Assembly (NCBI GenBank): GCA_041651535.1
Contig: JBAZIZ010000003.1
Span: forward strand, 83,357 to 147,356
Origin: Patescibacteria group bacterium
GTDB lineage: Bacteria; Patescibacteriota; Patescibacteriia; Magasanikbacterales; UBA922
Direction of reading: 5' to 3'
DNA length: 64,000 nt
Position numbers and translations under genes: made by a program. Every line of letters starts with the position of its first letter. Position 1 is the stretch's first letter. Shown here in pieces: positions 3,776-51,881 of this stretch. A model generated the notes under the pieces. It saw only the letters and a list, made by a program, of their open reading frames with translations, was not told the origin of the DNA and did not search any database.

Positions 3776-3878
3776 ATTTTTTCTTAATTTTTATACCCTT
3801 ATTGTAGCAAAACAAACAGCTTTTAGCAAGGAGGTAAACAATTGCTCTGCCGAAGTTTTTTTTATATAATTATTAAAT

Positions 3879-4935: not shown

Positions 4936-6819
4936 TTACAATTTGATTTCTTCTCCAAAAAATTTAATTGTTTCTCCTGCTTTTTCATCATCAGCACTAA
5001 TAGTAACTTTTGACATTAAATCTTCCTGGCTAGGATTTTTTTCTAAAAGTTCAATTTCAAATTGAGCAATTACTGCATCTGGTATATTTGTTGGCAAACT
5101 ATCAATTTGCCATTTTATTTTATTTTCTTTTTCATTATATTCAACTTTACCTGAAGAATTAACAATTTTACTAACATCAACCTTTGTTTTGCCATAAATA
5201 TCAGCAACTAAAACTACGTTTTTCAAATCATGAAAAGAGTTTGATAGTAGCCAAGTTACTTTATAAACAGTATTGCCAACTGAATTTTTTCCTTCTTCGC
5301 TCATAATATCAGCCAACAAATCAGATACAACTTTTAAATTAATCTTGTTACCTGTTTTAATTTCTTTTTTGCCATCTTTTTGATATTCAAGTTCAGCGAC
5401 AGCCATAATATTTGAATCAACAAAATCAGACAAAGTTATACTGCTATTATCTTTTAAAGAAATAGAAAAGTCTAAATAAACTTCTTGTCCTGGCATAATT
5501 TTTGCTAAAGAATCTACATAATTTTTATTCCAAGAAATTATTCCTCGACGTGAAGTGGCTGATAATTGTTCACCACTTACATCAGCATCATAAGGTTCTA
5601 CATTTAATTTTGTCCAATCTAATAAACTTTTATTATTTACCGATGGTGTATCAAAAAGCATATTAATTTTTACATCTTCCAAAACTGATTCACCTGAATT
5701 TTTTACTACAATTGTTGAATTTATAGTTTGTCCTGGTTTGATAGTAGTTTCACTCATTACTCCATTGATAGCTAAATTAAAAACAAAATCACTTTTAATA
5801 ATTTTTAAAACTTCTTCTTTTTCAAAAATCAGATATTCACTTTGTTTTTCTTTATCGATTTGATAAATTTTCAAATTAAAATTATTTTCCGAATTAACTT
5901 CATCAGCAAAATCTACAGTAAAAGTTAGAGTTTCTTCTTTTTCTAAATTTTCTATTAACCATTCACAAGAATTATTTATCGACTCCTTGTTAGAAGATTT
6001 AAAAATCATGTTTTCCGATTCACAGACTATTTTTAAATTAGTAATCTTATTTTCTTGTGGTGAAATCGTTAAATTAAATTCACTATCAGCATTTTTATAA
6101 ATATTTTCTGGAATCTTCAAATCAACATCAATCGGACTTTCTTCAGCATTGATTACGATATGAGCAACTTTTTGAAATTCAGAATTAAAATTTTCTGGCA
6201 CATAATTTAAAAAAGCTCTAATTGATTGTTCAGAATCAAGATTGCCATAAATTTGTCCTTCAATATCAAGATAACCTGAATCGTGGGCTTTTATGTTATC
6301 CAATTTCCAAATTGTATGATTTTCATCAACTGCAGTTAGCGTACTACTGACAAAAACAAAACCTTTTGGATATTTTACTTCTATCTCAGCTTCTTTTAAT
6401 TCTATGTTTTGTGAATTTTTATAATTTATTCGATAAGAAAAAGTTTCACCAATTTTTATTTTTTCCGGTCCGCTAATACTAAAATTTAAATCGTCTTCAG
6501 AAAAATCATCTCCTGAATCTAAAGAAAAAAATCCAAACCAAGCTATTGCTAAGAAAAAAGCTAACGAAAACAAAAAGACAAAAAAAGATCTGAGAAAACC
6601 AGTTTTCTCTTTTTTTTGTAGTTTTTTCATATCAAAAGTTTTATTACCGGCATCGCCATAAATTTCAAATAAGTCATCTTCAATTTTTTTTCTGATAACT
6701 TTTTTTGAATTTACAACCGCCTCTTTTTTTATTAAGCTGTATTTTTTATTTTTTTTTTCACTTTCAATATTTTTTTCTTCATCCAGAGGTTTTTTAACAA
6801 AATTGTGTTCTTCTGTCAT
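4936..6819 (-). CDS. Hypothetical membrane-anchored protein with large extracytoplasmic repeat/beta-rich region
   Basis: 627 aa. Lys/Glu-rich cytoplasmic N-terminus, a single TM (FLRSFFVFLFSLAFFLAIAWFGFF), then ~520 aa of low-complexity N/S/T/E-rich sequence. Lies directly downstream of, and in the same orientation as, the 871-aa membrane protein. Confidence 0.5.
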   Translation of the reverse strand: MTEEHNFVKKPLDEEKNIESEKKNKKYSLIKKEAVVNSKKVIRKKIEDDLFEIYGDAGNKTFDMKKLQKKEKTGFLRSFFVFLFSLAFFLAIAWFGFFSLDSGDDFSEDDLNFSISGPEKIKIGETFSYRINYKNSQNIELKEAEIEVKYPKGFVFVSSTLTAVDENHTIWKLDNIKAHDSGYLDIEGQIYGNLDSEQSIRAFLNYVPENFNSEFQKVAHIVINAEESPIDVDLKIPENIYKNADSEFNLTISPQENKITNLKIVCESENMIFKSSNKESINNSCEWLIENLEKEETLTFTVDFADEVNSENNFNLKIYQIDKEKQSEYLIFEKEEVLKIIKSDFVFNLAINGVMSETTIKPGQTINSTIVVKNSGESVLEDVKINMLFDTPSVNNKSLLDWTKLNVEPYDADVSGEQLSATSRRGIISWNKNYVDSLAKIMPGQEVYLDFSISLKDNSSITLSDFVDSNIMAVAELEYQKDGKKEIKTGNKINLKVVSDLLADIMSEEGKNSVGNTVYKVTWLLSNSFHDLKNVVLVADIYGKTKVDVSKIVNSSGKVEYNEKENKIKWQIDSLPTNIPDAVIAQFEIELLEKNPSQEDLMSKVTISADDEKAGETIKFFGEEIKL

Positions 6820-6833
6820 AATTTTTTATAAAA

Positions 6834-9449
6834 TTAATTTTTATTTTGCATAACAATTCCGTAAAATCCATCCGTTTTTAAAACTGTTTCCATTTTTGCT
6901 CCATTTTGTGAAATAAAACAATTTTCATCACTTGACCAAACAGGTGACCAAGAATCAGGATAAATAACAGTATTTGATAAAAATGAATTTATACCTGATT
7001 GTTTTTGAAAAATTATATTATATTTAGAAACTTTGCCATCACCCAAAAAATTAGCTAATTTTTCATCTATTTTGTAAGCATCATCAAAAACAGTAAATGG
7101 CAATTTATAAATAAAATAAATTTTCTTTTCTTCTCCCGGAGCAGTAATAATCCAATTAGCAAAGACAGTTTTTCCATATTCATTAGTAATTACCGTACCA
7201 TTGTTTTCATCTATTTTCTTGTTTGTCTCAATTGCTAATAAATCTTCGTCATTTTTGTACCAGTCTGGTGCTATTTGAAAAGTTTCTTCATCCGGATAAA
7301 TAAAACCACCTGCTTCTAAAAGTTCACTGCCTTCAGGTACATAAAGTTTTAAATAATCAACATTTGTGTCACCAAATAAATATTCTTCTGCTTGACCGTT
7401 ATGTTTGCGAGTAATTACGACAGTATCTATTACTGAACCGTCTTCTTGTACTAAAGCTTGGTGTTCTATAGTTTGTTCAATATTAAAATCACTTTTTCCA
7501 CCACCAACATTATTATTTGTCACTAATAAATAATCTTGTTTTTCACCAACATTTTTTACTTCCCCAGTCCAATTATAGGAAGAAAATAAATTTTGTAAAT
7601 CATTATCTTTAAAATAAAATTGTATTTCTTTTTCTGTTAAAGCTTCATGAATATTAAAAATCAAATTAAACATTTGTCTAGCTTCAATTTTATTCAAAGA
7701 AGAAAACATTTGATTAAATACTTCTGACAAAACTGCTTTTGGCTTATTTTCTATACCTTCATAATTTTCTATCTCGTATTGTAAATCTTTTAAAGCATTA
7801 TTTGAATCTAAAATTAAATCAAATTCTTTATTTTCAACTGGTCCTAAAACTTTTAAAACTCTTTCCAAAACACTGGCATTGATCGCAATCACTCCATCGA
7901 CAGTTGAATTGCGAGAATTTTTATAAAACCATTCCATTTTTTTTGCAGTATCTGGAAAATTTACAAACCAATTACCATCTTGAAATTCCCATCTTTGATT
8001 TACAGTTTGGAGAGCTAAAGGTGGCAAAACATATTCTTTTAATTGTCCTTGGAGATCATAACTGCCACCACCTGGGATATCAATATTTAAAATTTTTCCA
8101 TTTTGTAAATCAACCACAGCATAAGAACCTACAAAACCGCCACTAGCTCTAATTTCATTTTGATTTTGAAAAAGAATTAAATAACGGCGGAAACCATTAG
8201 AACCCAAAGCTGTACTAAGCGCACTTGAAGCTTTTGACATACTAGCAATATCTTTTACAAAAGCTTCATAAATATTTTTAAAATCAAAAAAAGTTTCTTG
8301 ATATTCAACTGGAATATTTGTTGTATCTATATCTGAAATTTTTTTCCAAGCTTCTTCATAAATAGGTTCAGCAAAATTAATATGATTTTTAGCAATTTCA
8401 ATTTTTTCTAGCAAAGTTAAATTTGGATTTGCTTGTATATCATTTATAGCTTTTACTAAATAAGCATTTCCCAAAGCTATTTTATGTCCAGCTTCTAATA
8501 AATTTTGTCTAGTTTTTATTTTTTGTCCGACAACTGGAATTAATTTTGCTACATAAAGCAAAGAATTGTATTCATTATCAATAATTTCTTCAGCGCCACC
8601 AAAATATTTTAAAGCTTCAGCTAAATCATATTTAGCTTGGTCAACATTAGAATTTAAAACAGCGACAGTGGAAGATTGTAATGATAAAAAAGCATCGACA
8701 CTTTTGTCAGTCACTCGTGAAGTATCATATTCAACTTTTTTATAAAAACTAAAAGAAGGGTAAGGGATCGCCACTAAAACAAACAAACAAATAGAAGCCA
8801 AAGCTGTTTTTTTCCAATTCCATAAAAAATCAAAAGAAAAATTTAATTTTATTTTTTTTGGTTTAAATAAATTTTCTATAAAGTCAAAAGAAAAATCAAA
8901 GTTTGGTTTTTTAATAAAAAATTTTTTTTGTTTTTTTAAAACTGGTCGAGGAATAGTTTGGTATTTATTTTCTATTTTTGCTATTTCCGCTAAAATATCA
9001 ACTTTGATTTTTGGTTCTTTTTTGATATTGTTTTTTTGTTTTTCGATTATTTTGCTATCAATATTTTTTTGTGTTCCAATTTTGTGTTGTTTTATCAGAT
9101 CAGAGAAAACAAGTGTTTTTAAAATTGGTTTTTTTACAACTTCTTCACGATAAGGAATTATATTTCCCAAAATATTTTTTTTATCTTTTTTGTTTAAATT
9201 TACTATATATGGTGAAACTTCGGTAATATTTTTATCAGCACTTATCTTAACATTAATAAATTTTGCATTGTCTTTATTTAAAATTTTTGTTTCCTTAGTA
9301 TTTTTTTTAAAAAGAATCTCTGTTTTTTCTTTTTTTGCTTCAATATTTTTTTTTTCGGAAAAATGCAAAGGACAGGTTCTAGTATTATGACCTGTTTTAC
9401 CACAAATCGCACAACGGCGAGGATTTTTTAACAATATTTTCTTTTTCAC
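6834..9449 (-). CDS. Large membrane-anchored protein with N-terminal CCHC zinc knuckle and big extracytoplasmic domain
   Basis: 871 aa. Residues 13-26 are CAICGKTGHNTRTC (C-X2-C-X4-H-X4-C). A K-rich linker and one TM (TALASICLFVLVAIPYPSF) follow, then ~650 aa of exterior domain with conserved-looking blocks (ASGGFVGSYAVVDLQNGKILNIDIPGGGSYDLQGQL). Confidence 0.55.
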   Translation of the reverse strand: MKKKILLKNPRRCAICGKTGHNTRTCPLHFSEKKNIEAKKEKTEILFKKNTKETKILNKDNAKFINVKISADKNITEVSPYIVNLNKKDKKNILGNIIPYREEVVKKPILKTLVFSDLIKQHKIGTQKNIDSKIIEKQKNNIKKEPKIKVDILAEIAKIENKYQTIPRPVLKKQKKFFIKKPNFDFSFDFIENLFKPKKIKLNFSFDFLWNWKKTALASICLFVLVAIPYPSFSFYKKVEYDTSRVTDKSVDAFLSLQSSTVAVLNSNVDQAKYDLAEALKYFGGAEEIIDNEYNSLLYVAKLIPVVGQKIKTRQNLLEAGHKIALGNAYLVKAINDIQANPNLTLLEKIEIAKNHINFAEPIYEEAWKKISDIDTTNIPVEYQETFFDFKNIYEAFVKDIASMSKASSALSTALGSNGFRRYLILFQNQNEIRASGGFVGSYAVVDLQNGKILNIDIPGGGSYDLQGQLKEYVLPPLALQTVNQRWEFQDGNWFVNFPDTAKKMEWFYKNSRNSTVDGVIAINASVLERVLKVLGPVENKEFDLILDSNNALKDLQYEIENYEGIENKPKAVLSEVFNQMFSSLNKIEARQMFNLIFNIHEALTEKEIQFYFKDNDLQNLFSSYNWTGEVKNVGEKQDYLLVTNNNVGGGKSDFNIEQTIEHQALVQEDGSVIDTVVITRKHNGQAEEYLFGDTNVDYLKLYVPEGSELLEAGGFIYPDEETFQIAPDWYKNDEDLLAIETNKKIDENNGTVITNEYGKTVFANWIITAPGEEKKIYFIYKLPFTVFDDAYKIDEKLANFLGDGKVSKYNIIFQKQSGINSFLSNTVIYPDSWSPVWSSDENCFISQNGAKMETVLKTDGFYGIVMQNKN

Positions 9450-19218: not shown

Positions 19219-19827
19219 TTATTCTTTAATTCCATCTAAATTTACATCGTAAAGCATTTTTTCATTGACTAATTTATAACTCATAATTTCATCTTCTTTG
19301 AACCAAACTTTTATTTCTCTTTCAGCTTCACTTGGTTTATCAGAACAATGAATTAAATTTCTAACAGCACGTCCATCCATATTTGCTAATTCATAAGAAT
19401 CAAGAGTTAAATCACCACGAATTGTACCTACATCAGAACTAAGAGGTTCTGTTCCACCAACAATTTTTTTGATAATACCGACAGCTTGATTTCCTTCCCA
19501 AATCATCATCAAAAGTGGGCAACAAGTCAAAAAAGAAACATTACCACGTAAAATATCTCGTCCATATTCTAAAGCAGATTTTTCTATTGGTAATCCTGCT
19601 TTTGTTCTATTACTAACAGTAATTTGTCCTTTTTCTTCACACCAACGATCATCTTTATTATAATGACGCAAACATTGATCTTCTGTTGCTAAAGATAATT
19701 TCATAGCAATTAATTTTAAACCTGTTCTTTCAAGACGACCGATTATTTCACCAATCAAACTTCTTTGAATTCCATCTGGTTTGATGATAACAAAACTTTT
19801 TTCTTTTGTAGCTGTATTTAAGCCCAT
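19219..19827 (-). CDS. ndk: Nucleoside diphosphate kinase with ~50-aa internal insertion
   Basis: 202 aa. NDK motifs present: FVIIKPDGIQRSLIGEIIGRLERTGLKLIAMK, CPLLMMIWEG, GTIRGDL, NLIHCSD (active-site His). An extra segment lies between helix A and the Kpn loop region. Confidence 0.8.
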   Translation of the reverse strand: MGLNTATKEKSFVIIKPDGIQRSLIGEIIGRLERTGLKLIAMKLSLATEDQCLRHYNKDDRWCEEKGQITVSNRTKAGLPIEKSALEYGRDILRGNVSFLTCCPLLMMIWEGNQAVGIIKKIVGGTEPLSSDVGTIRGDLTLDSYELANMDGRAVRNLIHCSDKPSEAEREIKVWFKEDEIMSYKLVNEKMLYDVNLDGIKE

Positions 19828-38279: not shown

Positions 38280-39278
38280 ATGGTTTTACTTTTTAAACAT
38301 AAAATGATAAAATTAAAATGTATGACCGAAAAAGAAGGAATTCTACAACTCCAAAAATCTTTTGGCATTAATCCTATTTTTTCTAGGATAATTTTTGATA
38401 AAATAAAAAAAGATAATTTAATAGAAGACGCTGCAAAGATTATTGCAGAAAGACCAAAACCTTTTGTAAAATGGGTTGGAGGAAAACGCCAACTTTTAAA
38501 ACAATTTAAAGAGCTTGGATTATATCCTCCAGATGAATTTAATCCTTTAAAACACACTTATTTTGAGCCTTTTGTTGGTGGTGGGGCTGTATTTCTTGAT
38601 TTATTACCAAAAAATGCGGTTATTTCTGATTTAAATTCCGATCTCATTACGACTTATAAAGTAGTTAAAAATGATGTTGAAAAATTGATAAAATTATTAA
38701 AAACATATAAATATAGTAAAGATTTCTTTTTAAAAATTAGAAGTCAAAAATCTTCTAGTCTTTCTGAAATTCAAATCGCGGCGAGATTTATTTATTTAAA
38801 CAGAACTTGTTTTAATGGCTTGTATAGAGTTAATAGCAAGGGAGAATTTAATGTTCCGTTTGGAAAATACAATAATCCACTTATTTGTGATGAAGATAAT
38901 TTAAAAAAAATATCCAAAGCTCTAAAAAATGTAAAAATTTATAATGAAGACTATAAAAATGTTTTAAAAAGATCTAAAAAAGGAGATTTTATTTATTTTG
39001 ATCCTCCTTATTATCCAATAAACAAAACTTCATCATTTACTTCTTACACCTCAAAGGAATTTTTAGAAAAAGAACAATTGGAACTCAGAGATACCTTTTT
39101 AGAATTACACAGAAGGGGTTGCTTTGTGATGCTTTCAAATTCTAACACTCCTTTTATAAATAAAATTTATTCTGATTTTAAAGGGATTAAAATTAATAAA
39201 ATAGAAGCAAACAGAAATATAAATTCTAAAGCTTCGGGAAGAGGCAAAATAAAAGAAGTTTTAATCATTAATTATTAA
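38280..39278 (+). CDS. Dam-family DNA N6-adenine methyltransferase (GATC-type, MboIA/DpnM-like)
   Basis: 332 aa. KWVGGKRQLL, EPFVGGGAVF (motif I), IYFDPPYYP (motif IV). Confidence 0.85.
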   Translation: MVLLFKHKMIKLKCMTEKEGILQLQKSFGINPIFSRIIFDKIKKDNLIEDAAKIIAERPKPFVKWVGGKRQLLKQFKELGLYPPDEFNPLKHTYFEPFVGGGAVFLDLLPKNAVISDLNSDLITTYKVVKNDVEKLIKLLKTYKYSKDFFLKIRSQKSSSLSEIQIAARFIYLNRTCFNGLYRVNSKGEFNVPFGKYNNPLICDEDNLKKISKALKNVKIYNEDYKNVLKRSKKGDFIYFDPPYYPINKTSSFTSYTSKEFLEKEQLELRDTFLELHRRGCFVMLSNSNTPFINKIYSDFKGIKINKIEANRNINSKASGRGKIKEVLIINY

Positions 39279-39285
39279 TTTTTAT

Positions 39286-40143
39286 ATGAAAAAAGATTTT
39301 AACAAACTAACAAACACATTCAAAAGTTCAATTAAAACCTGGGATTATTTTGTAAACTGGGAGAAGGTTTTCTTAAACAAATCAGAATTAGAAATAACTC
39401 TTAATAAACTAAATTATTTACTAGGTAAAGACAATTTAAAAGATGAATTTAAAAAACTTTTTATCTCTAATCCTGATATTATAAAAGCTTTTCCTGTATT
39501 ATTAGCTGTCAGAGATAATAAACTTGAAGTATTTGACAAGGTGACAAAAAATTCTGAGTTTTTTGATTTTTCGCAAACAGATAAAAACTATGAAAAGTAT
39601 TTTTTATTCCTTAAAAATTCTGGACTTGATAAACTTTTTCAAAAAGACGGAATTAAAAATCTTGTTGATTATGTAATGGGGGTTGAAGTTGGGCTTGATA
39701 GTAATGGTAGAAAAAACCGAGGAGGTTCATTAATGGAAGAAATAGTTGAATCTTTTATTTCTGATTTTTGTAAAAATAAAGGGTTTGAATATGCTACTCA
39801 AGCTAGGTCTAGTGCAATAAAAAGTAAGTGGGGTGTAAATGTAAAAATAAATAAATCAGAAAGAAGTTTTGATTTTGCTATTTATAATCCTAAAAGTAAA
39901 AAGATTAAATTGTTTGAAACAAATTTTTATAATGGGGGTGGTTCAAAACTAAAAGCAGTTTGCGGGGAATTTAAAAGTCTTTATACAGAACTTAAAGAAC
40001 AAAGTATAGATTTTATTTGGATAACTGATGGCTTAGGTTGGTTTACAGCCAAAAGACCTCTTGAAGAAACATATAATCATAACGAATACATTTTTAATTT
40101 GAATATGCTTGGGGAAGGAATTTTGAATGAATTAAAATGGTAA
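39286..40143 (+). CDS. Type II restriction endonuclease, DpnII/MboI family (GATC)
   Basis: 285 aa. Blocks LVDYVMGVEVGLDSNGRKNRGG, FDFAIYNPKSKKIKLFETNFYNGGGSKLKAV and FIWITDGLGWFTAKRPLEETY match my recollection of DpnII-family REases. Confidence 0.8.
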   Translation: MKKDFNKLTNTFKSSIKTWDYFVNWEKVFLNKSELEITLNKLNYLLGKDNLKDEFKKLFISNPDIIKAFPVLLAVRDNKLEVFDKVTKNSEFFDFSQTDKNYEKYFLFLKNSGLDKLFQKDGIKNLVDYVMGVEVGLDSNGRKNRGGSLMEEIVESFISDFCKNKGFEYATQARSSAIKSKWGVNVKINKSERSFDFAIYNPKSKKIKLFETNFYNGGGSKLKAVCGEFKSLYTELKEQSIDFIWITDGLGWFTAKRPLEETYNHNEYIFNLNMLGEGILNELKW

Positions 40144-40149
40144 ATTCTT

Positions 40150-40899
40150 ATGGCCAACAAAAAACAGAGACTTCATCCTGATAATTTTGAAATGGAGTGT
40201 ACCACTGTTTGGTCGTTTCCACGACGCGGTAATTGGGCGACACATAAATCGGATTGGAGAGGAAATTGGGCACCTGAAGTAGTGCGCAATTTAATTTTAC
40301 GTTATTCAAAAGAAAAAGATCATTTATTAGACTGTATGATTGGCGGTGGAACGACTGCTATTGAAGCAAAAATTTTAAATAGACATATCACCTGTGTTGA
40401 TATTAATGAACAAGCTGTCAAAAGAACGATAGAATCATTAAAATTTGAAATAAATAATAAAGCAAAACAAAGAATTGTAAAATGTGATGCAAGAAAAATG
40501 GATTTTATTAAAAATAATGAAATTGATTTTGTTCTCACCCATCCCCCTTACGCAGACATAATAAAATATAGTAATGGAAAAATAAAAGAAGATCTTTCCA
40601 ATATTCACGACATAGATGAATTTGTAAATCAAACTGGATTAGTAGCAAAAGAACTTTACAGAGTTTTAAAATCAGGAAAATTTTGTGCGATTTTAATTGG
40701 AGATACTCGCAGAAATAAAATGTATCAACCAATTGCTTTCCGAGTGATGGCTGAATTTATTAAAGTTGGTTTTAAATTAAAAGAAGACATAATAAAAAAA
40801 CAACACAATTGCAAAGCAACTGGTTTTTGGGTTAATAAGTCAAAAGAATTAAATTTTTTACTAATAATGCACGAACATTTATTTATTTTTCAAAAGTAA
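40150..40899 (+). CDS. Second DNA methyltransferase of the cassette (DpnA/MboIC-like N6-adenine MTase)
   Basis: 249 aa. Motif I LDCMIGGGTTAIEA and motif IV FVLTHPPYADI. Gene order M-R-M matches the mboA-mboB-mboC arrangement. Confidence 0.7.
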   Translation: MANKKQRLHPDNFEMECTTVWSFPRRGNWATHKSDWRGNWAPEVVRNLILRYSKEKDHLLDCMIGGGTTAIEAKILNRHITCVDINEQAVKRTIESLKFEINNKAKQRIVKCDARKMDFIKNNEIDFVLTHPPYADIIKYSNGKIKEDLSNIHDIDEFVNQTGLVAKELYRVLKSGKFCAILIGDTRRNKMYQPIAFRVMAEFIKVGFKLKEDIIKKQHNCKATGFWVNKSKELNFLLIMHEHLFIFQK

Positions 40900-42556: not shown

Positions 42557-43522
42557 ATGTCTCTTAAAAAAAATTTAATAAATTTTTTAGAATATCTCGA
42601 AATAGAAAAAAATCGCAGTCCAAAAACTGTGGAAAATTATAATTTTTATTTAGGTCGTTTTATTGAATGGTTTGGTGACAAATCTGCTGACGCTATAAAA
42701 TCTGAAGATGTTCGTCAATATCGTTTATGGTTAAACAGACTGGTTGATGTTCATGGCGAAGCTCTTAAAAAAAATACACAAAATTATCATCTTATCGCTT
42801 TACGATCTTTTTTGAAATATTTATCAAAACAAGACGTTGAAACTTTAGCTCCAGAAAAAATTGAACTTATGAAAATGCCAGACAGACAGGTGGACTTTTT
42901 AGACAACAGTGATTTAAACAGAATTTTAGAAGCACCGTTTAAAAATATAAATAAAAAAAAATTAGAAGAAGAAGGAGAAAAAAAAGGAATGTCCGCTACT
43001 TTACTCATTGCTTACCGTGATAAAGCTCTTTTGGAACTTTTGTTTTCTACAGGACTTCGTGTTTCCGAAGCTGCCAAATTAAAAAAAACTGATATAAATC
43101 TTAATCGCGATGAATTTACAGTTAGAGGAAAAGGAATGAAAAGTCGTATCGTATTTTTGTCTGAACAAGCAAAATATTTTTTAAAAAAATATTTGGAAAT
43201 CCGTGCTGATATGAATCCACATCTTTTTATTTCTCATGACAAAAGAACAAAAAAAGAAGACAATGATTCTTTTTTAACTCCACGATCTATCGAAAGAATT
43301 GTCCAAAAACATGCACGAGAAGCTGGAATTACAAAAACTGTCACTCCACACACACTTCGCCATTCTTATGCGACTGATTTGTTACAAAATGGTGCTGATA
43401 TCCGAAGCGTCCAAGCGATGCTCGGTCATTCTTCTATTACCACTACTCAAATTTACACTCACATTACAGACAAAGAATTACGAAACATTCACAAAAAATT
43501 TCATGACAAAGGAAGAAAGTAA
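42557..43522 (+). CDS. xerC: Tyrosine recombinase, XerC/XerD family
   Basis: 321 aa. N-terminal SAM-like domain. C-terminal catalytic R..HxxR..Y is intact: HTLRHSYATDLL...GHSSITTTQIYTH. Confidence 0.85.
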   Translation: MSLKKNLINFLEYLEIEKNRSPKTVENYNFYLGRFIEWFGDKSADAIKSEDVRQYRLWLNRLVDVHGEALKKNTQNYHLIALRSFLKYLSKQDVETLAPEKIELMKMPDRQVDFLDNSDLNRILEAPFKNINKKKLEEEGEKKGMSATLLIAYRDKALLELLFSTGLRVSEAAKLKKTDINLNRDEFTVRGKGMKSRIVFLSEQAKYFLKKYLEIRADMNPHLFISHDKRTKKEDNDSFLTPRSIERIVQKHAREAGITKTVTPHTLRHSYATDLLQNGADIRSVQAMLGHSSITTTQIYTHITDKELRNIHKKFHDKGRK

Positions 43523-44581: not shown

Positions 44582-45649
44582 ATGAAAAAAATATTTTTAA
44601 TCTCTTTTTTTCTTATTTTTAATTTATTTTGGACAATAAACTGTCAAGCTGAGGAAAATAATAACCAAAATCAAGAAATAAAAAAAATAAATGCTACTGT
44701 GATTTTTGTAGGAGAAAATTCAGTTCGCATCAAAGATAATCAGGGCAATCACTATGAAGTGGATCAAAGTTTTGAAACTGGCAGTAGCGAAAAAGTAGAA
44801 AAAGGTATGAATGTTAAAGCAGAATTAATAACTATGCAAGATGGTTCTATTCGTTGTGTAATCAGTGATATAAACAGACTAGAAAAAATTTGGATTTTTA
44901 TTATAATTTTTGTTTTTTCAGTTTTTTGTTTTTTAAGAAAGCAGGGTTTAATCGCTTTATTAAATTTAGCAATTACTTTTTTATTTGTTATTTTTTTTAT
45001 AATACCTCTTGTAATAAAAGGTTATAATCCGTTAATATCAACTATAATCGGCACTTCACTTGCAATGACTGTTATGTTTTTTACTTTGTATGGCAAAACA
45101 AAAAAAACTTTAGCAATCAGTTTTTCAGCATTAATCAGTTTGATAATTTCTACAATTTTTTCTTGGTTATTTATCAAATTTACTTATCTGACAGGTTTTG
45201 CTAGTGATGAAGCTACTTATTTAGTTACTGCTGGTTATGGACATATTGATATGAAAGGTTTACTTTTAGCTGCATTTTTAATCGGAATTATGGGAACTTT
45301 GGATGATATTATTATCAATCAAGTTTCAATTATTGAAAGTTTAAAAAAAATTAATCCAAAAATGAAATCTTGGGAAGCTTATCGTGAAGCTATGAAAATA
45401 GGTCGAGATCACATGTCTTCGATGATCAATACTTTAATTTTTGCTTATGCTGGGGCAGCTTTTCCACTGCTGATTTTATTTTATTTAAAAAATCCTCCTT
45501 TTGATTCAGTGAATTCTATTTTAAATAATGAAATAGTTGCAACTGAAATTGTTCGGATGATCGTTGGCTCAATGTCTTTACTTTTTGCCACACCAATTTC
45601 AAGTTATTTAGCCGTCAAATTCTTTTTGACAAAAAACAAACAACGTTGA
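44582..45649 (+). CDS. YibE/F-family-like integral membrane protein with N-terminal exported domain
   Basis: 355 aa. Signal peptide, a ~90-aa soluble domain, then 6-7 TM with a conserved GTLDDIIINQ block. Confidence 0.5.
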   Translation: MKKIFLISFFLIFNLFWTINCQAEENNNQNQEIKKINATVIFVGENSVRIKDNQGNHYEVDQSFETGSSEKVEKGMNVKAELITMQDGSIRCVISDINRLEKIWIFIIIFVFSVFCFLRKQGLIALLNLAITFLFVIFFIIPLVIKGYNPLISTIIGTSLAMTVMFFTLYGKTKKTLAISFSALISLIISTIFSWLFIKFTYLTGFASDEATYLVTAGYGHIDMKGLLLAAFLIGIMGTLDDIIINQVSIIESLKKINPKMKSWEAYREAMKIGRDHMSSMINTLIFAYAGAAFPLLILFYLKNPPFDSVNSILNNEIVATEIVRMIVGSMSLLFATPISSYLAVKFFLTKNKQR

Positions 45650-45674
45650 CAAAAATATATTTTTCCGCTATAAT
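45646..45674 (+). promoter_or_regulatory. Perfect consensus sigma70 promoter TTGACA, 17 nt, TATAAT for tRNA-Arg
   Basis: TTGACA at 45646..45651 (overlaps the stop of the upstream CDS), a 17-nt spacer, TATAAT at 45669..45674. Confidence 0.55.
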
Positions 45675-45693
45675 TTTTTCGTGTTTAAAAAAC

Positions 45694-45765
45694 GCTCCGA
45701 TAGTTCAATGGATAGAACACAAGCCTTCTAAGCTTGGGATGTAGGTTCGATTCCTACTCGGGGTA
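45694..45765 (+). tRNA. tRNA-Arg (anticodon UCU)
   Basis: GCTCCGA-TA-GTTC-AATGGATA-GAAC-A-CAAGC-CTTCTAA-GCTTG-GGAT-GTAGG-TTCGATT-CCTAC-TCGGGGT-A. 72 nt. The acceptor stem has two G-U pairs. Confidence 0.8.
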
Positions 45766-45766
45766 C

Positions 45767-45797
45767 AAAAAAATCCGTTCAAAACGGATTTTTTATT
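45767..45797. terminator. Bidirectional rho-independent terminator
   Basis: AAAAATCCGTT-CAAA-AACGGATTTTT. Lies between tRNA-Arg and the convergent lipoprotein gene. Confidence 0.6.
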
Positions 45798-46209
45798 TAG
45801 CACAATCAGAAAGCATATAATCTGGAAAATTATACTTTGATAAAGTGCAATCTATTTGTCCATTACCCGCAAAAACAATTTCCCAATTATTTTCTATTTT
45901 TGTCGCTAAAAAAATAATCCCAGGCATTTTTTCTACAAAAATTATGCCTCCACGAGCAAAATTTGCTTCAAATTTATCAATTCTGACTTGTAAAGTTTTT
46001 TGATATTTTGGATATTTATCAATAAAAAGTTTCTGTAATTCAGCCTGTGCGTCTTCTTTTTCTTTGAGATTGTTTTGGTCAATTTTATTTTGATTTTCTA
46101 AAATATTTTTTTCTTCTTTTTTAGAATCAAAAACTGACAAATTACAAGCAGAAAAAAATAAAGATATAAAAAATAAAAAAATAAATATAATGATTTTATT
46201 GTTTTTCAT
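45793..46209 (-). CDS. Putative lipoprotein (138 aa)
   Basis: Signal peptide with a lipobox-like LFFSAC. Confidence 0.5.
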   Translation of the reverse strand: MKNNKIIIFIFLFFISLFFSACNLSVFDSKKEEKNILENQNKIDQNNLKEKEDAQAELQKLFIDKYPKYQKTLQVRIDKFEANFARGGIIFVEKMPGIIFLATKIENNWEIVFAGNGQIDCTLSKYNFPDYMLSDCAK

Positions 46210-48586: not shown

Positions 48587-48611
48587 AAAATCCGCTAACA
48601 GCGGATTTTTT
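48587..48611 (+). terminator. Rho-independent terminator after rplA
   Basis: AAAATCCGCT-AACA-GCGGATTTTTTG. Confidence 0.6.
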
Positions 48612-48694: not shown

Positions 48695-49216
48695 ATGGAA
48701 AAAGCTCGGCAAGATGTTCCTTCATGGGATGAATTTTTTATAAAAATAGCTGAAACAGTTTCAAAAAAATCAAAAGATCCTTCAACACAAAATGGTTGTG
48801 TTATAGTAGACAAAAAAAATAAACCTATCTCTTTTGGTTATAATGGTTTTATTAGTGATGCTGATGAAAACAAAATGACTTTTGAAAGACCTATGAAATA
48901 TTTTTTGACAATTCATGCTGAAATGAATGCTATTTTATTTGCTAAAAAAGATTTAGAAGATTGTGTTCTTTATACTCTTTATGCACCGTGTGATAATTGT
49001 CTTAAACATATTATTCAATCAGGCATAAAAAAAATTATCTATAAAAATTATATTGTGGAAAGTAAAAAAACTAATAATGAAAAATATATTGCCAATGAAA
49101 ACACTCGGGAAGCAATTACTAGAATTTTATTATCAAGACCTGATGTAAAATGTTATAATTTAGATGGTAAAACTTTTTTAGAAGAAATGTGGGGAAAAGA
49201 TATTCCAATTTTTTAA
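48695..49216 (+). CDS. dCMP deaminase (cytidine/deoxycytidylate deaminase fold, ComEB-like)
   Basis: 173 aa. Zinc ligands HAEMNAI and YAPCDNC. Confidence 0.8.
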   Translation: MEKARQDVPSWDEFFIKIAETVSKKSKDPSTQNGCVIVDKKNKPISFGYNGFISDADENKMTFERPMKYFLTIHAEMNAILFAKKDLEDCVLYTLYAPCDNCLKHIIQSGIKKIIYKNYIVESKKTNNEKYIANENTREAITRILLSRPDVKCYNLDGKTFLEEMWGKDIPIF

Positions 49217-49233
49217 TTTTTAAATAATACTTT

Positions 49234-49785
49234 ATGAAAAAAATAATTTTAGGTTTTACTGGTTTAATGGCTAGCGGAAAAGATACTTGCGCCGATTATT
49301 TAGAAAATAAATATGGTGGAAAAAATTATAGTTTTTCCACCATGCTTGCTGATGTTCTAAAAAGATATCATTTAGAAATCAATCGTGATAATCTCATAAA
49401 AATTTCAGAAGCGATGCGCACAACTTTTGGAGAAGATATTTTAGCAAAAACTATGGCATATGATTTAGAAAAAGATGATCATAAAATAGTATCCACCTCA
49501 AATGTTCGCCGTATGGCTGATATAAAATATTTATCAAAATTACCAAATTTTGTTTTGGTGACAATAGAAGCTGATCCAAAAATTCGTTACGAAAGACTTG
49601 TTAAAAGAGGACAAAGAAGTGATGAATTTAATAAAACTTATGAAGAATTCTTAGCTGATCATAAACGTTCAACCGAAATTACCATAATAGATACAATGGC
49701 TCAAGCTACAGAAAAAATAGACAATAACGGTAATATTGAGGAATTATATTCTCAGGTTGATGCAATCTTAAAAAAATATCAATAA
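49234..49785 (+). CDS. P-loop nucleotide kinase, phage T4 gp1-type dNMP kinase-like (alternatively dephospho-CoA-kinase-like)
   Basis: 183 aa. N-terminal KIILGFTGLMASGKDTCADYL resembles the T4 gp1 start (LIFLSGVKRSGKDTTADFI, from memory). Sits inside a pyrimidine-nucleotide gene cluster. Confidence 0.5.
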   Translation: MKKIILGFTGLMASGKDTCADYLENKYGGKNYSFSTMLADVLKRYHLEINRDNLIKISEAMRTTFGEDILAKTMAYDLEKDDHKIVSTSNVRRMADIKYLSKLPNFVLVTIEADPKIRYERLVKRGQRSDEFNKTYEEFLADHKRSTEITIIDTMAQATEKIDNNGNIEELYSQVDAILKKYQ

Positions 49786-49801
49786 TTATTAAAATAAAAA
49801 T

Positions 49802-50668
49802 ATGGATGCTTATTTAAAAATTGTTAAAAATATTTTAGAAAATGGTGAAAGAAAACCAAATCGCACTGGAGTTGATACGATTGCTCTTGCTGGAGCTTTT
49901 TTCGAACATGATATGAGTGAAGGTTTTCCTATTTTAACCACAAAAAAAGTTCCTTTTAGACTGCCTGCTAGTGAATTAGAATTTTTTATTAAAGGATTAA
50001 CTGATAAAAAATGGCTGCAAGATAGAAATAATCATATTTGGGATGAATGGTGCAGTCCAAAAAAAGTTCCTTATGGACATGACGAAGAAACTAAGAAAAA
50101 AATGGCTGAAGAAAGAGAGCTTGGCCCAATTTATGGTTTTCAATGGCGTCATTTCAATGCTGAATATACAAATTTTGATACTAATTATGAAGGAAAAGGA
50201 ATTGACCAATTAAAAAATGTTGTGGAAACATTGAAAAAAAATCCAACAGACAGACGAATGATAATTAGTTCATGGAATCCATGCCAATCTGGAGAAATGG
50301 CTTTACCACCATGTTATATAGCTTCTCAAATAACAGTGATCGGAGACAAAATCAATTTACTTTGGAACCAAAGATCTGTAGATGTTATGATCGGTTTACC
50401 TTTTGATATAGTAAGCCATGCTTTGCTTTTACATTTACTTGCCAAAGAAACAGGTCTAAAAGAAGGACGTTTAGTTGGATTTTTAGGTGATGCTCATATT
50501 TATGAAAACCATATTGAGGGTGCAAAAGAACAACTAAATAGAATTCCAAAAAAATTACCAACAATTAGTACTGAAAATTTTACTTCAATTTTTGATTGGC
50601 AATATACAGATTCTAAAATTTTAAATTACGATAGTCATGAAGCAATTAAATTTGATATTGCTGTTTAA
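49802..50668 (+). CDS. thyA: Thymidylate synthase (ThyA) family enzyme with Asn-to-Asp substitution at the pyrimidine-specificity position (dCMP-type signature)
   Basis: 288 aa. ThyA motifs NRTG, WDEW, YGFQWR, DRRMIISSWN, ALPPC (catalytic Cys), NQRSVD, GDAHIY, and a conserved C-terminal tail. At the position of E. coli N177 (LPFNIAS) it has GLPFDIVSH, with the Asp codon GAT at 50405..50407. Confidence 0.85.
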   Translation: MDAYLKIVKNILENGERKPNRTGVDTIALAGAFFEHDMSEGFPILTTKKVPFRLPASELEFFIKGLTDKKWLQDRNNHIWDEWCSPKKVPYGHDEETKKKMAEERELGPIYGFQWRHFNAEYTNFDTNYEGKGIDQLKNVVETLKKNPTDRRMIISSWNPCQSGEMALPPCYIASQITVIGDKINLLWNQRSVDVMIGLPFDIVSHALLLHLLAKETGLKEGRLVGFLGDAHIYENHIEGAKEQLNRIPKKLPTISTENFTSIFDWQYTDSKILNYDSHEAIKFDIAV

Positions 50669-50684
50669 TTTTATCTTTTATTTT

Positions 50685-51167
50685 ATGATTTCAATTATAG
50701 TAGCCATTGCTGACAATTATTGTATCGGTAAAAATAACAAGATCCCTTGGCACATTCCAGAAGATTTTAAATATTTTAAAGAAAAAACATTAGGAAAAAC
50801 TGTTATTATGGGCGCTAATACTTTTGAATCAATTACAGGCTATCTTAAAAAACCTTTGCCAGATAGAAAAAGTTTAGTTTTAAATAAAGATTTAAATTAT
50901 CAAGTGCCTGAAGGTGTTTTTGTCTTTGATTCAATTCCTAAAGCTCTTGATTTTTGTAAAAATGAAGACGAAGTTTTTTTTATCGGTGGAGCTAGTGTTT
51001 ATCGCCAAGCAATGGAATTTGCTGACAGACTTTATATTACTGAAGTACACCAAAATGTAGATGGCGATACTTTTTTCCCAGAAATAGACAAAAATATTTG
51101 GCAAGAAATAAGTCGTGATGATAAAGATGGTTTTTCTTTTGTCATTTACGAGAGAATAAAAAAATAA
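50685..51167 (+). CDS. folA: Dihydrofolate reductase
   Basis: MISIIVAIADNYCIGKNNKIPWHIPEDFKYFKEKT... and GGASVY. Start set at ATG 50685 to avoid overlap with thyA. The track ORF starts at 50637. Confidence 0.8.
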   Translation: MISIIVAIADNYCIGKNNKIPWHIPEDFKYFKEKTLGKTVIMGANTFESITGYLKKPLPDRKSLVLNKDLNYQVPEGVFVFDSIPKALDFCKNEDEVFFIGGASVYRQAMEFADRLYITEVHQNVDGDTFFPEIDKNIWQEISRDDKDGFSFVIYERIKK

Positions 51168-51176
51168 TTTAATTCT

Positions 51177-51881
51177 ATGTTTATAATACTTGATGGAATT
51201 GATGGTTCAGGCAAAGGCACTATTATAAAAGAATGGCAAAAATATTTTGAATCACAAAATAAAAAAATTTTTAATCTAAAAGAATTTTGGCGTATAAATA
51301 ATCGTCATCCTGAATTTGAAGAAATAAAAAATTTTGATGTTCTCTTTTCTGCTGAACCAACTTATGTTGGCGTTGGCGAAATAATTCGCAAAGAATTAAT
51401 AAAAAATGGAAATGATTATAGTCCAACTACAATCGCCCATGCTTATGCTTTGGATAGATTGGTTCTTTATAAAAAAATTATAATACCTTTTTTACAAATG
51501 AATAAAATTGTTATCAAAGATCGCAGTGTAAGTACTTCTCTTTGTTATCAACCGTTGCAAGATGGTTCAATTACAATTGATGAAGTAGCTAAAATTGAAG
51601 GAAATGAATTTGCTTTAAAAAACGCTCCTGATTATTTAATTATCGCCGACTTGCCTGCTACTGAAGCTATCAAAAGATTGTTTGAAAGAACTAACGAAAA
51701 AGACGATGCTTTGTTTGAAAAAAAAGAATTTTTAGAAAAAGCACGCACAACTTTTTTAAGTGAAAATTATCAAAAATTTTTCACTGACCGAGGAACAAAA
51801 ATAAAAATCTTTAATTCTAATCAAAATATTGATATAATGAAAACAGAAAGTATCAATTTGCTTTTAAATTTAATAAGTTAA
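51177..51881 (+). CDS. tmk: Thymidylate kinase
   Basis: 234 aa. P-loop LDGIDGSGKGT and DRSVSTSLCYQ (DRY-like motif). Confidence 0.8.
   Translation: MFIILDGIDGSGKGTIIKEWQKYFESQNKKIFNLKEFWRINNRHPEFEEIKNFDVLFSAEPTYVGVGEIIRKELIKNGNDYSPTTIAHAYALDRLVLYKKIIIPFLQMNKIVIKDRSVSTSLCYQPLQDGSITIDEVAKIEGNEFALKNAPDYLIIADLPATEAIKRLFERTNEKDDALFEKKEFLEKARTTFLSENYQKFFTDRGTKIKIFNSNQNIDIMKTESINLLLNLIS

Follow-up and report, generated by a model that had tools for sequence, protein, structure and literature searches.

The window, a 64-kb stretch of a contig from an uncultured Patescibacteria group bacterium and the part of its genome analyzed here, contains a five-gene cluster encoding a dCMP-deaminase-family protein, a nucleotide kinase, a ThyA-family enzyme, dihydrofolate reductase (DHFR), and thymidylate kinase (Tmk) (Table 1). 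This gene order and the coordinates of the genes agree with those of the original prediction. The hairpin that precedes the deaminase gene likely represents the upstream boundary of the operon. A longer alternative ORF for DHFR, beginning at position 50637, overlaps the end of thyA; the start given in Table 1 is likelier. The window also contains ndk at positions 19219 to 19827. A second thyA, or a thyX, may lie in the genome beyond these 64 kb.

Table 1. Features of the thyA operon in the 64-kb window (residue numbers of the ThyA entry are those of E. coli)
Feature	Position	Strand	Basis or remark
Palindromic hairpin with T-runs on both sides	48587..48609		Just past the rplA stop; terminator-like consensus match only
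dCMP-deaminase-family protein, 173 aa, "long" CPR type	48695..49216	+	PF00383, 5.5e-23
P-loop nucleotide kinase, 183 aa, UPF0200/AdkA-like and phage-dNMP-kinase-like	49234..49785	+	PDB and PHROG matches
ThyA-family enzyme, 288 aa, Tyr147/Asp177/Val179/His181	49802..50668	+	PF00303, TIGR03284
Codons TGT TAT: catalytic Cys171 (E. coli C146), then Tyr172 replacing invariant His147	50312..50317	+	Sequence
Codon GAT: Asp202 at the Asn177 specificity position	50405..50407	+	Sequence and alignments
Codons GTA AGC CAT: Val204 (A179V), Ser205, His206 (Y181H)	50411..50419	+	Sequence and alignments
Dihydrofolate reductase, 160 aa from ATG 50685	50685..51167	+	PF00186, 9.9e-55
Thymidylate kinase, 234 aa	51177..51881	+	PF02223, 1.4e-22; TIGR00041, 90 bits, above its cut-off

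The ThyA protein matched thymidylate synthase (TS) models over its full length (PF00303, 1.1e-91 over residues 3 to 288; TIGR03284, 286 bits against a cut-off of 108) and solved TS chains in the PDB at 3.5e-72, and its best PHROG, Pfam, and NCBIfam matches were all thymidylate synthase. In an alignment of 79 sequences, it retained R21, E58, Y94, R126, R127, C146, Q165, R166, S167, D169, H207, and Y209 (E. coli numbering), and W80 and W82 of the WDEW motif, read from the alignment blocks, were present together with a TS-type C-terminal tail (KFDIAV). These include the catalytic Cys and positions that serve phosphate, ribose, and folate. The original prediction that every catalytic hallmark is kept proved too broad. 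Although the catalytic residues it listed are otherwise in place, His147 has become Tyr (ALPPCY, codon TAT at 50315-50317), Tyr181 has become His (codon CAT at 50417-50419), and Ala179 has become Val.

The same prediction had placed an Asp at the column of E. coli Asn177, and our alignments bore this out. When aligned to solved TS structures, the Asp of GLPFDIVSH falls exactly on the Asn of GVPFNIASY, which puts it on the specificity position and not elsewhere, and column 177 is likewise D in the 79-sequence alignment. Nor is this Asp a general property of related TSs: across two homologue searches, Asn177, His147, and Tyr181 were found in 229/229 full-length homologues outside two small Asp-type clades, and all Asp-bearing TS sequences fell in one of these two clades. 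The 229 Asn-type homologues showed no variation at 53 columns, and the window ThyA departs from them at exactly three of these, 147, 177, and 181. Because there are only these three deviations and Asp is confined to two clades, the triple change is more than chance.

Strains from other samples carry the same ThyA signature. We observed it in proteins 94 to 96% identical to the window ThyA in independent assemblies of other runs (ERR7337947 and SRR26510968/9), and in at least four independent assemblies overall, with strains from other samples sharing 87% nucleotide identity (13% of nucleotides differ). The Asp codon in the sister strains is GAC, synonymous to GAT in the window. Between strains, thyA has a dN/dS of 0.04 at a dS of 0.87, the lowest in the operon, compared to 0.07 for the deaminase and 0.16 for tmk. 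The thyA gene is thus under strong purifying selection, and these values together with the independent assemblies effectively rule out a sequencing or assembly artifact or a decaying gene.

The deaminase contains the HAEMNA and APCDNC motifs of the HAE...PCxxC zinc site, an FGYNGF motif of the GYNG allosteric type (the G(Y/W)N(A/G) motif is defined in PMC12088426), and a C-terminal extension. It matched phrog_174 dCMP deaminase at 1.3e-39, and the best match of its family profile was human DCTD (2w4l, 4e-29). Homologues with 60 to 72% identity are widespread in Patescibacteria. At this operon position, the closest Asn-type genome has a deaminase of a different subfamily, with only 40% identity. 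Deaminase type is not tied to TS type: one Asn-type TS (L100) is accompanied by a "long" deaminase, and the Asp-type TSs of group C are accompanied by the "short" one. For the kinase, the best solved relatives were UPF0200/AdkA-like proteins (PDB 3lw7 and 3h0k, E~8e-14). Its earlier description as a T4-gp1-like kinase has a weak basis. T4 gp1 itself (1dek) matched only at the P-loop (E=0.05), and the Pfam DNMK model (PF21448) scored 20.3 bits, below its cut-off of 27.1, over only the 44 residues from 8 to 51. In contrast, the kinase matched phrog_139 "dNMP kinase" over its full length at 1.2e-20, so that a dNMP-kinase-like function is possible from sequence similarity.

The closest Asn-type relatives carry a ThyA 81% identical to that of the window in the same operon, with H, N, A, and Y at positions 147, 177, 179, and 181. 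Four Asn-type sisters (L006, L007, L010, and L174) share the gene order and flanks (rplA ... gatCAB, IMPDH), with ThyA proteins 73 to 81% identical; the kinase gene is also present in Asn-type operons, and the window DHFR is 84% identical to that of a sister Asn-type genome. The dcd-kinase-thyA-folA-tmk operon is ancestral and unchanged by the switch rather than assembled around it, and the Asp change is lineage specific. Since gene content is the same in the Asn-type sisters, context alone is no argument for a new pathway. DHFR adjoins thyA in groups A and B as well as in the window lineage, and the same holds for phage Xp12 and for most loci of group C. The coupling of DHFR and a dCMP-deaminase-family gene seen in the window operon is likewise found in Asn-type operons, making it permissive but not diagnostic.

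The same Y147, D177, and H181 occur in a separate Uhrbacteria clade, which branches within other Asn-type TSs. An exclusive clade of the window lineage and the Uhrbacteria Asp-type sequences was recovered in 0 of 300 bootstraps, and the window ThyA grouped with its Asn-type sisters at bootstrap values of 0.94 to 0.97. These phylogenetic results indicate that the H147Y/N177D/Y181H triple arose independently in Uhrbacteria; the hypergeometric probability of three changes at conserved columns being common to both lineages was 5e-4. In the Uhrbacteria clade, the Asp-type gene is adjoined by well-conserved genes for two dUMP-forming enzymes, dCTP deaminase (DCD) and dUTPase, and the Asn-type sisters of this clade have the same arrangement. 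This conservation suggests that dUMP is still consumed in the Asp-type clade, and because DCD and dUTPase are kept there, Asp-type enzymes may be dual specific or retain residual use of dUMP.

We also compared the window ThyA with viral sequences. Among annotated phages in INPHARED, no record reached 60% identity (the best was 44%), and the best Asp-type TS on IMG/VR contigs was 55% identical. In the tree, the nearest relatives of the window ThyA are Asn-type cellular TSs, and common descent with phage dCMP methyltransferases was not found, the Xp12 TS being 29% identical. The dCMP C5-methyltransferase class is polyphyletic, and a lack of shared descent does not bear on function.

Position 177 is a known determinant of TS specificity. 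Asn177 serves as a hydrogen-bond donor to O4 of uracil and as an acceptor from its N3 (PMC6479881). Work by Liu and Santi (1992) and by Hardy and Nalivaika (1992), in the passage of PMC8670742 that cites it, turned TS into a dCMP methylase by an Asn-to-Asp change, with specificity inverted in two engineered TSs (E. coli N177D and L. casei N229D). In a MetaGPA metavirome association, positions 177 and 147 were the two residues that best distinguished TS homologues of cytosine-modified contigs from those of unmodified ones (PMC8670742). Furthermore, of seven Asp177-bearing phage TS homologues tested in E. coli, five produced 5mdC and two did not, with the sole TS homologue of Xp12, the positive control, giving 5-methyl-dC (bioRxiv 10.1101/2024.12.05.627091).

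Considering these precedents and the three active-site changes, we predict that the window ThyA is a dCMP C5-methyltransferase (5-methyl-dCMP synthase). We lean toward a model in which a TS was recently converted in place to a dCMP-preferring C5-methyltransferase, with the deaminase then giving a thymine nucleotide, so that cytosine methylation probably precedes deamination in the cell's synthesis of thymidine nucleotides. The three replaced residues (H147Y, N177D, and Y181H) lie around the pyrimidine N3/C4 edge, and in this model Asp177 would pair with cytosine at N3 and at the 4-amino group. Agarwalla et al. reportedly found in 1997 that additional replacement of His199 (E. coli H147) further improved the L. 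casei dCMP methylase. Cys171 would attack C6, and CH2-THF would give the methylene and then a hydride, yielding 5-methyl-dCMP and dihydrofolate (DHF), from which the adjacent DHFR would regenerate tetrahydrofolate (THF).

The operon deaminase is then proposed to convert the 5-methyl-cytosine nucleotide to a thymine nucleotide, either as the monophosphate, which would pass to Tmk, or after phosphorylation to the triphosphate, as the 5mC-phage deaminase mSCD-B5 does in vitro. Human DCTD, Xp12 DCTD, and mSCD-B5 are precedents for deamination of 5-methyl-dCMP or 5-methyl-dCTP; Xp12 DCTD makes dTTP from 5m-dCTP (PMC12088426), and mSCD-B5 is strictly triphosphate specific, with phage in-cis deaminases acting at that level (bioRxiv 10.1101/2024.12.05.627091). 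Relative to the classical dCMP-to-dUMP-to-dTMP route, the order of methylation and deamination would be swapped and the end product would be the same. Since 5-methyl substrates are generally suitable for DCTD-type deaminases, a lone AAT-to-GAT change would have been nonlethal, which may explain the recurrence of the switch in Patescibacteria. The original prediction had likewise proposed action on dCMP, reductive methylation, and deamination, a reading that is supported independently by the changed residue 147, the separately arisen Uhrbacteria triple, and the Xp12 parallel. Reductive methylation is favored because DHFR is adjacent and the TS C-terminus and WDEW are intact.

We regard it as unlikely that the enzyme is still essentially a dUMP-methylating TS, in which a protonated Asp177 would mimic Asn, Tyr147 and His181 would tune its pKa, and dCMP would be at most a side substrate. 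Such an enzyme would suit the housekeeping TS slot that the gene fills in an unchanged dTMP operon, and the intact state of all other dUMP-binding and catalytic residues, the retention of adjacent, conserved dUMP suppliers in the Uhrbacteria Asp-type clade, and the two phage Asp177 enzymes that made no 5mdC are all consistent with it. However, unchanged function gives no reason for the triple to have arisen twice at positions invariant in all 229 close dUMP-type homologues. The inversion of specificity in the two engineered TSs, as that work is cited in PMC8670742, and the occurrence of D177 and H181 in the Xp12 homologue, which gives 5-methyl-dC, also argue against it. A T4 gp42-kind dCMP hydroxymethylase, or another nonmethylating activity of the TS family, is very improbable. 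Asp at the specificity position is common to gp42 and MilA (PMC5175136), but the window ThyA shares 81% identity with ordinary TSs, aligns to TS models over its whole length, and has the TS tail and WDEW; moreover, DHFR lies immediately downstream, possibly overlapping the end of thyA, and hydroxymethylation yields THF with no need for DHFR.

A rival model, in which 5-methyl-dCTP formed by the kinase and Ndk would be fed into replication as in Xp12, with much or all C as 5mC and thymine nucleotides obtained by deamination of part of the pool, is in our view rather improbable. In its favor, genes for an Asp-type TS, a deaminase, and DHFR are grouped as in the phage module, a phage-dNMP-kinase-like gene lies between the deaminase gene and thyA, ndk is in the window, and phage in-cis deaminases work at the triphosphate level. 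Against this, the kinase and deaminase are ancestral and occur in Asn-type genomes too, Tmk is kept under selection, implying a dTMP pool, and a function for excluding dCTP, whether dCTPase, MazG, or HAD-type, is absent from the Pfam domain lists of the 64-kb window. GC content is also like that of the Asn-type sister (27 to 28% in the window lineage versus 29 to 30%), and Uhrbacteria Asp-type genomes are at 42 to 48%. That some Patescibacteria, including the window lineage, methylate cytosine at the level of the nucleotide pool and carry DNA with a large share or all of C as 5mC, with thymine from the same pool, we consider decidedly doubtful; if true, this would be the first pool-level base substitution in the genome of any cellular organism.

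The in-place conversion to a dCMP methyltransferase that we favor has its closest counterpart in the Xp12 module (MT664984, 44377-46195). Both enzymes have Asp177, a non-His residue at 147 (Pro in Xp12 and Tyr in the window), and His181, and both genes adjoin a dCMP-deaminase-family gene and a DHFR gene. Of these residues, His181 accompanies the class typified by Xp12 without formally defining it. Xp12 obtains thymine nucleotides by deaminating a 5-methyl-cytosine nucleotide and needs no dUMP-type TS, as we propose for the window. However, their 29% identity implies an independent origin, the TS C-terminal tail of the window ThyA has no counterpart in the Xp12 enzyme, and the viral enzyme serves complete replacement of C by 5mC, whereas the window gene is chromosomal and lies in the ancestral dTMP operon of the cell with Tmk. 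Metavirome Asp177 homologues encoded beside 5mC-selective deaminases (MetaGPA and mSCD-B5) are similar to the window in that Asp177 predicts 5mdCMP synthesis (5/7), a deaminase is in cis, and position 147 discriminates, but they are on phage contigs with modified DNA, and the window deaminase is of a cellular Patescibacteria family.

The engineered E. coli N177D and L. casei N229D enzymes, as cited in PMC8670742, indicate that one Asn-to-Asp replacement is enough for a TS that is canonical in other respects to methylate dCMP. They are laboratory mutants, whereas the window allele is natural, carries two cosubstitutions, and is fixed under purifying selection. T4 gp42 shares the TS superfamily and the Asp, but is described as a distant sequence family without a TS-type C-terminus that transfers hydroxymethyl without folate oxidation. 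The canonical bacterial dcd/dut-thyA-folA-tmk operon of the four Asn-type sisters has the order and flanks of the window operon and differs in Asn177/His147/Tyr181 versus Asp/Tyr/His and in deaminase subfamily. The route had been predicted to be an unconventional one to thymidylate. It is already established for 5mC phages, and what the window would add is a cellular counterpart of this phage route that evolved in situ.

The ThyA-family protein, annotated by NCBI as plain "thymidylate synthase" (TS) and 100% identical to the record "MAG: thymidylate synthase [Patescibacteria group bacterium]", has Asp at the position of E. coli Asn177, as originally predicted. In alignment with solved TS structures, the Asp of GLPFDIVSH falls on the Asn of GVPFNIASY, and its GAT codon lies at 50405-50407. 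The protein had also been thought to keep every catalytic hallmark that could be checked. We confirmed this for R21, E58, Y94, R126, R127, C146, Q165, R166, S167, D169, H207, and Y209, but two further active-site residues are changed: His147, which follows the catalytic Cys, is Tyr (ALPPCY; codon 50315-50317), and Tyr181 is His (codon 50417-50419). Ala179 is replaced by Val.

Of the 120 nearest homologues in the database (69-81% identity), none but the query combined this Asp with PPCY. Asp177 is not a general property of related TSs, as 229 homologues were Asn-type. Within these 229 Asn-type sequences, 119 columns are at least 95% conserved and 53 are strictly invariant. The window ThyA departs at seven of the 119 conserved columns (V130I, A132S, H147Y, Y148I, L172I, N177D, and Y181H), compared with none for its 81%-identical sisters and at most five for any Asn-type sequence. 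At the 53 invariant columns, it departs at exactly 147, 177, and 181.

The PPCYIASQ / GLPFDIVSH signature recurs in three more proteins of the 90% cluster (94-96% identical, one truncated), which come from independent assemblies and other sequencing runs and are encoded in the same operon. Relative to those strains, thyA shows 87% nucleotide identity, a dS of approximately 0.87, and a dN/dS of 0.04, the lowest among the five operon genes, and the Asp177 codon differs synonymously between strains (GAT versus GAC). The Asp-type ThyA is a selected state, and a sequencing error or a decaying gene is ruled out.

The thyA gene belongs to five close-packed genes spanning 48695-51881, separated by gaps of 9-17 nt or by a short thyA/folA overlap, with folA directly downstream of thyA as anticipated. 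The longest DHFR ORF begins at an ATG at 50637 and overlaps the final 32 nt of thyA. The operon is flanked by trigger factor, rplA, a membrane protein, gatCAB, and IMPDH, and the rest of the 64-kb window (GC, 27%) is ordinary chromosome encoding aspS, glycosyltransferases, ndk, a uvrD-like helicase, der, pth, dprA, a folC-like ligase, topA, gmk, and a Dam/DpnII restriction-modification system. The tyrosine recombinase gene just downstream of that system adjoins an acetyltransferase and two unannotated small ORFs, and it could be XerC/D or mark the edge of a small island. The Pfam domain lists that span the window include neither a C5-cytosine methyltransferase nor a thymidine kinase, and we found no second thyA hit, ThyX RHRx7S motif, or dut (dUTPase) hit in its 64 kb.

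Coordinates of the operon genes and of the restriction-modification and recombinase genes in the window
Feature	Position	Strand	Remarks
dCMP-deaminase-family protein	48695-49216	+	
Small P-loop kinase	49234-49785	+	
ThyA-family protein	49802-50668	+	
DHFR	50685-51167	+	Most likely ATG 50685; homologues and other gene calls start there (MISIIVAIADN)
Thymidylate kinase (Tmk)	51177-51881	+	
Dam-like MethyltransfD12 methylase	38280-39278		First gene of DpnII-type restriction-modification cluster (38280-40899)
DpnII endonuclease	39286-40143		Restriction-modification cluster
Second N6/N4 methylase	40150-40899		Restriction-modification cluster
Tyrosine recombinase	42557-43522		Phage_int_SAM_1 and Phage_integrase domains

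The same dcd-kinase-thyA-folA-tmk order, in which dcd denotes the dCMP-deaminase-family gene, is found in the nearest Asn-type genomes. These are the genome encoding P0003 (ThyA 81% identical; L006/L007) and a Magasanikbacteria MAG (ThyA 73% identical; L008-L010), the latter with the same rplA ... gatB/IMPDH flanks and an extra dut between kinase and thyA. The window lineage and its closest Asn-type sister both lack dut in the operon. The gene cluster is ancestral rather than assembled around the specificity switch, and because these Asn-type genomes share the operon order, the kinase is not a lineage-specific addition. The Magasanikbacteria contigs also carry two deaminase-fold genes near the operon (2801-3283 and 6536-7024).

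Of the cluster initially described as dCMP deaminase, T4-gp1-like kinase, DHFR, and Tmk, the deaminase, DHFR, and Tmk assignments held, but the T4-gp1-like label is weak. The kinase reached 20 bits over 44 residues against Pfam DNMK, under the cut-off, and E=0.05 against T4 gp1 (1dek); its best solved relatives are UPF0200/AdkA-like proteins (E of about 8e-14), and a match to the broad family PHROG 139, which carries the annotation dNMP kinase, spans the whole protein (1.2e-20). The separate deaminase and kinase genes (48695-49785) each match one domain of an anti-phage kinase-deaminase fusion, NF041025 ("antiphage dCTP deaminase"; 68 bits versus a cut-off of 400), and also PADLOC dCTPase PDLC02373. 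We rejected a defence-system reading since the scores fall far under the cut-off and these operons conserve the deaminase-kinase pair as part of their housekeeping content; even so, the pair appears to have a common origin with the defence enzyme.

Compared with its counterpart in the sister operon of the nearest Asn-type genome, the window deaminase has only 40% identity, against 76-84% for thyA, folA, and tmk. It is a member of a "long" deaminase family (173-180 aa) that is widespread in Patescibacteria and has human DCTD as its best solved relative. Co-adaptation of this deaminase with the Asp-type TS is not supported, as the long family is widespread and mostly away from thyA, the long type also occurs with an Asn-type TS (locus L100), and Asp-type group C (described below) uses a "short" type. 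Several long-family members (among others P0135, P0160, P0170, P0173, P0185, and P0196) have HDAMN or HDIMN instead of HAE(M)N, with the catalytic Glu missing and an Asp one position earlier; these may be paralogues without activity or enzymes with a different catalytic arrangement.

Asp-type TSs also occur elsewhere. A scan with the back-translated motif QRSxDxxxGxPFD[IVM] across one genome per species (185,579 species) yielded 38 sites, approximately 26 of them inside TS-like ORFs. At least 12 of these roughly 26 loci are labelled Patescibacteria (Wolfe-, Jorgensen-, Sung-, Uhr-, and Parcubacteria, Minisyncoccia, and Paceibacterota), and six more, labelled "uncultured Gammaproteobacteria", have Patescibacteria sequence types and locus structure. 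The latter contigs (L058, L063, L065, L068, L073, and L075) carry group B and C TS genes, L065 and L075 have a locus identical in structure to that of Uhrbacteria MAGs, and their Gammaproteobacteria labels may be wrong. The same pattern on viral contigs gave 41 sites, mostly TS-like ORFs with Asp177 and with H, Y, P, L, or C at 147.

The Asp-type loci fall into at least three groups distinguished at position 147: group A (APCH...DIAEY; Wolfe-, Jorgensen-, Sung-, and Parcubacteria; L052, L071, L072, L074, L084, L085, and L086), group B (PPCY...DIVAH; Uhrbacteria), and group C (PPCP...DIASY). The TS gene has DHFR as a neighbour in groups A and B and at most group C loci; group C loci additionally have dcd, kinase, dut, or tmk, in sets that vary from locus to locus. 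In group A, His147 is kept, the phosphate-binding Arg21 is replaced by Pro, position 180 is Glu, and, in all except L086, Gln151 is replaced by Lys. Group A represents a third cellular lineage of Asp-type TSs, and a markedly distinct one.

All nine group B sequences (77-92% identical to the reference) have Y147/D177/H181, most with V179, and all 110 of their next neighbours (≤74% identity) have H/N/A/Y. In neighbor-joining trees with 300 bootstraps, the window lineage grouped with Asn-type sisters (0.94-0.97) and group B was monophyletic (0.89-1.0); the two Asp-type clades never came together as an exclusive clade, not even when the convergent columns were kept in. Conserved columns changed at seven positions in the window enzyme and four in group B, of which three are common and carry identical residues (hypergeometric P=5e-4). 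That the Uhrbacteria clade and the window lineage owe their changes to common ancestry or gene conversion was rejected on these 0/300 exclusive-clade bootstraps, the difference in GC (27% versus 42-48%), and differing neighbouring residues. A phage origin or recent transfer was likewise rejected: the best match in an annotated phage collection is 44% identical, with none at 60%, the best Asp-type TS on an IMG/VR contig is 55% identical, and in the trees the gene falls within cellular Asn-type TSs. The group B locus reads dut <> thyA-folA-deaminase ... DCD-tmk (DCD, dCTP deaminase), as in its Asn-type sisters; as in the window lineage, the switch arose within an unchanged locus. In Uhrbacteria locus L088, thyA-folA is followed downstream by a deaminase of 300 aa (3624-4526) that also matches the nucleoside 2-deoxyribosyltransferase-like PF05014 at 26.2 bits, under the 28.8-bit cut-off. 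A 531-aa cytidylate-kinase-like protein lies between deaminase and DCD in L066 and L088 only.

The most likely mechanism, which we hold with moderate confidence, is methylation of dCMP followed by deamination to a thymine nucleotide, with DHFR recycling the folate. ThyA would methylate dCMP reductively, giving DHF, which fits the kept TS C-terminus, the WDEW motif, and the adjoining DHFR. The deaminase would then turn the 5-methyl-cytosine nucleotide into a thymine nucleotide, either at the monophosphate level and followed by Tmk or after phosphorylation, as for the triphosphate-specific phage-type deaminase mSCD-B5. The first step may have been the single AAT->GAT change, with H147Y and Y181H coming later as tuning, presumably to some selective advantage. 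Because the classical route works with its two steps in either order and the operon already had a deaminase, AAT->GAT would leave thymidylate supply intact, which would account for the repeated appearance of the switch in Patescibacteria as well as for the constant gene content.

Two other readings bear on this proposal. dCTP deaminase and dUTPase are the classical suppliers of dUMP, and group B keeps both adjoining its Asp-type gene; their retention would be surprising if nothing consumed dUMP, so a dual-specific or still dUMP-preferring ThyA stays live, albeit as an unlikely reading. When phage Asp177 TS homologues adjoining deaminases were expressed in E. coli with T4 gp1, five of seven made 5mdC, as did the Xp12 homologue used as the positive control, and two did not (2024 preprint, bioRxiv 10.1101/2024.12.05.627091). 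That methylated dCMP feeds a 5mC-substituted genome of this bacterium is more improbable still: Tmk is kept, and the Pfam domain lists spanning the 64 kb contain no function that would exclude dCTP. A GC shift relative to the sister is likewise absent, the window and sister lineages being alike in GC and in the mutational signature of 5mC DNA, although this comparison is uninformative on 5mC.

Synthesis of thymidylate from dUMP is treated as universal for cells. TS-family dCMP methylases and a methylate-then-deaminate route to thymine nucleotides are already known in phages, the route, to our knowledge, only in those with 5mC genomes. Our literature searches found no Asp-type TS or 5-methyl-dCMP route in Patescibacteria or any cell, and no report of an Asp-type TS as a cellular housekeeping enzyme or of the 147/177/181 triad. 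Our findings suggest that cells took the phage-type route repeatedly, by three point changes in an ordinary ThyA and with gene content unchanged. If true, this would be a clean natural case of a pathway with commuting steps, which make a specificity switch evolutionarily accessible. It should be of high interest to specialists in nucleotide metabolism and CPR bacteria. The triad could improve TS annotation, the route bears on the logic of antifolates and 5-FU-type inhibitors and on dUTP/uracil avoidance in reduced genomes, and it raises the possibility of pool-derived 5mC in bacterial DNA.

The biochemistry of TS and the phage Xp12 offer the closest comparisons. Asn177 of TS donates to uracil O4 and accepts from N3-H (PMC6479881), and the Asn-to-Asp change is described as converting TS to a dCMP methylase (Liu & Santi 1992; Hardy & Nalivaika 1992, as cited in PMC8670742). 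Positions 177 and 147 are the two that best discriminate TS homologues of cytosine-modified from those of unmodified contigs (PMC8670742). In our alignments, His181 occurred only where 147 is not His (window lineage, group B, locus L053, viral locus L014, and Xp12), suggesting that positions 147 and 181 interact, and the i/i+4 spacing on one helix together with this covariation is consistent with contact among 147, 177, and 181. The Xp12 genome, itself 5mC-containing, encodes one TS homologue (45326-46195), followed directly by dCMP deaminase and DHFR. This homologue aligns as VPCP...GLPYDVMGHALL, corresponding to P147, D177, and H181, so that His181 is common to the window enzyme, group B, and the only TS homologue of Xp12.
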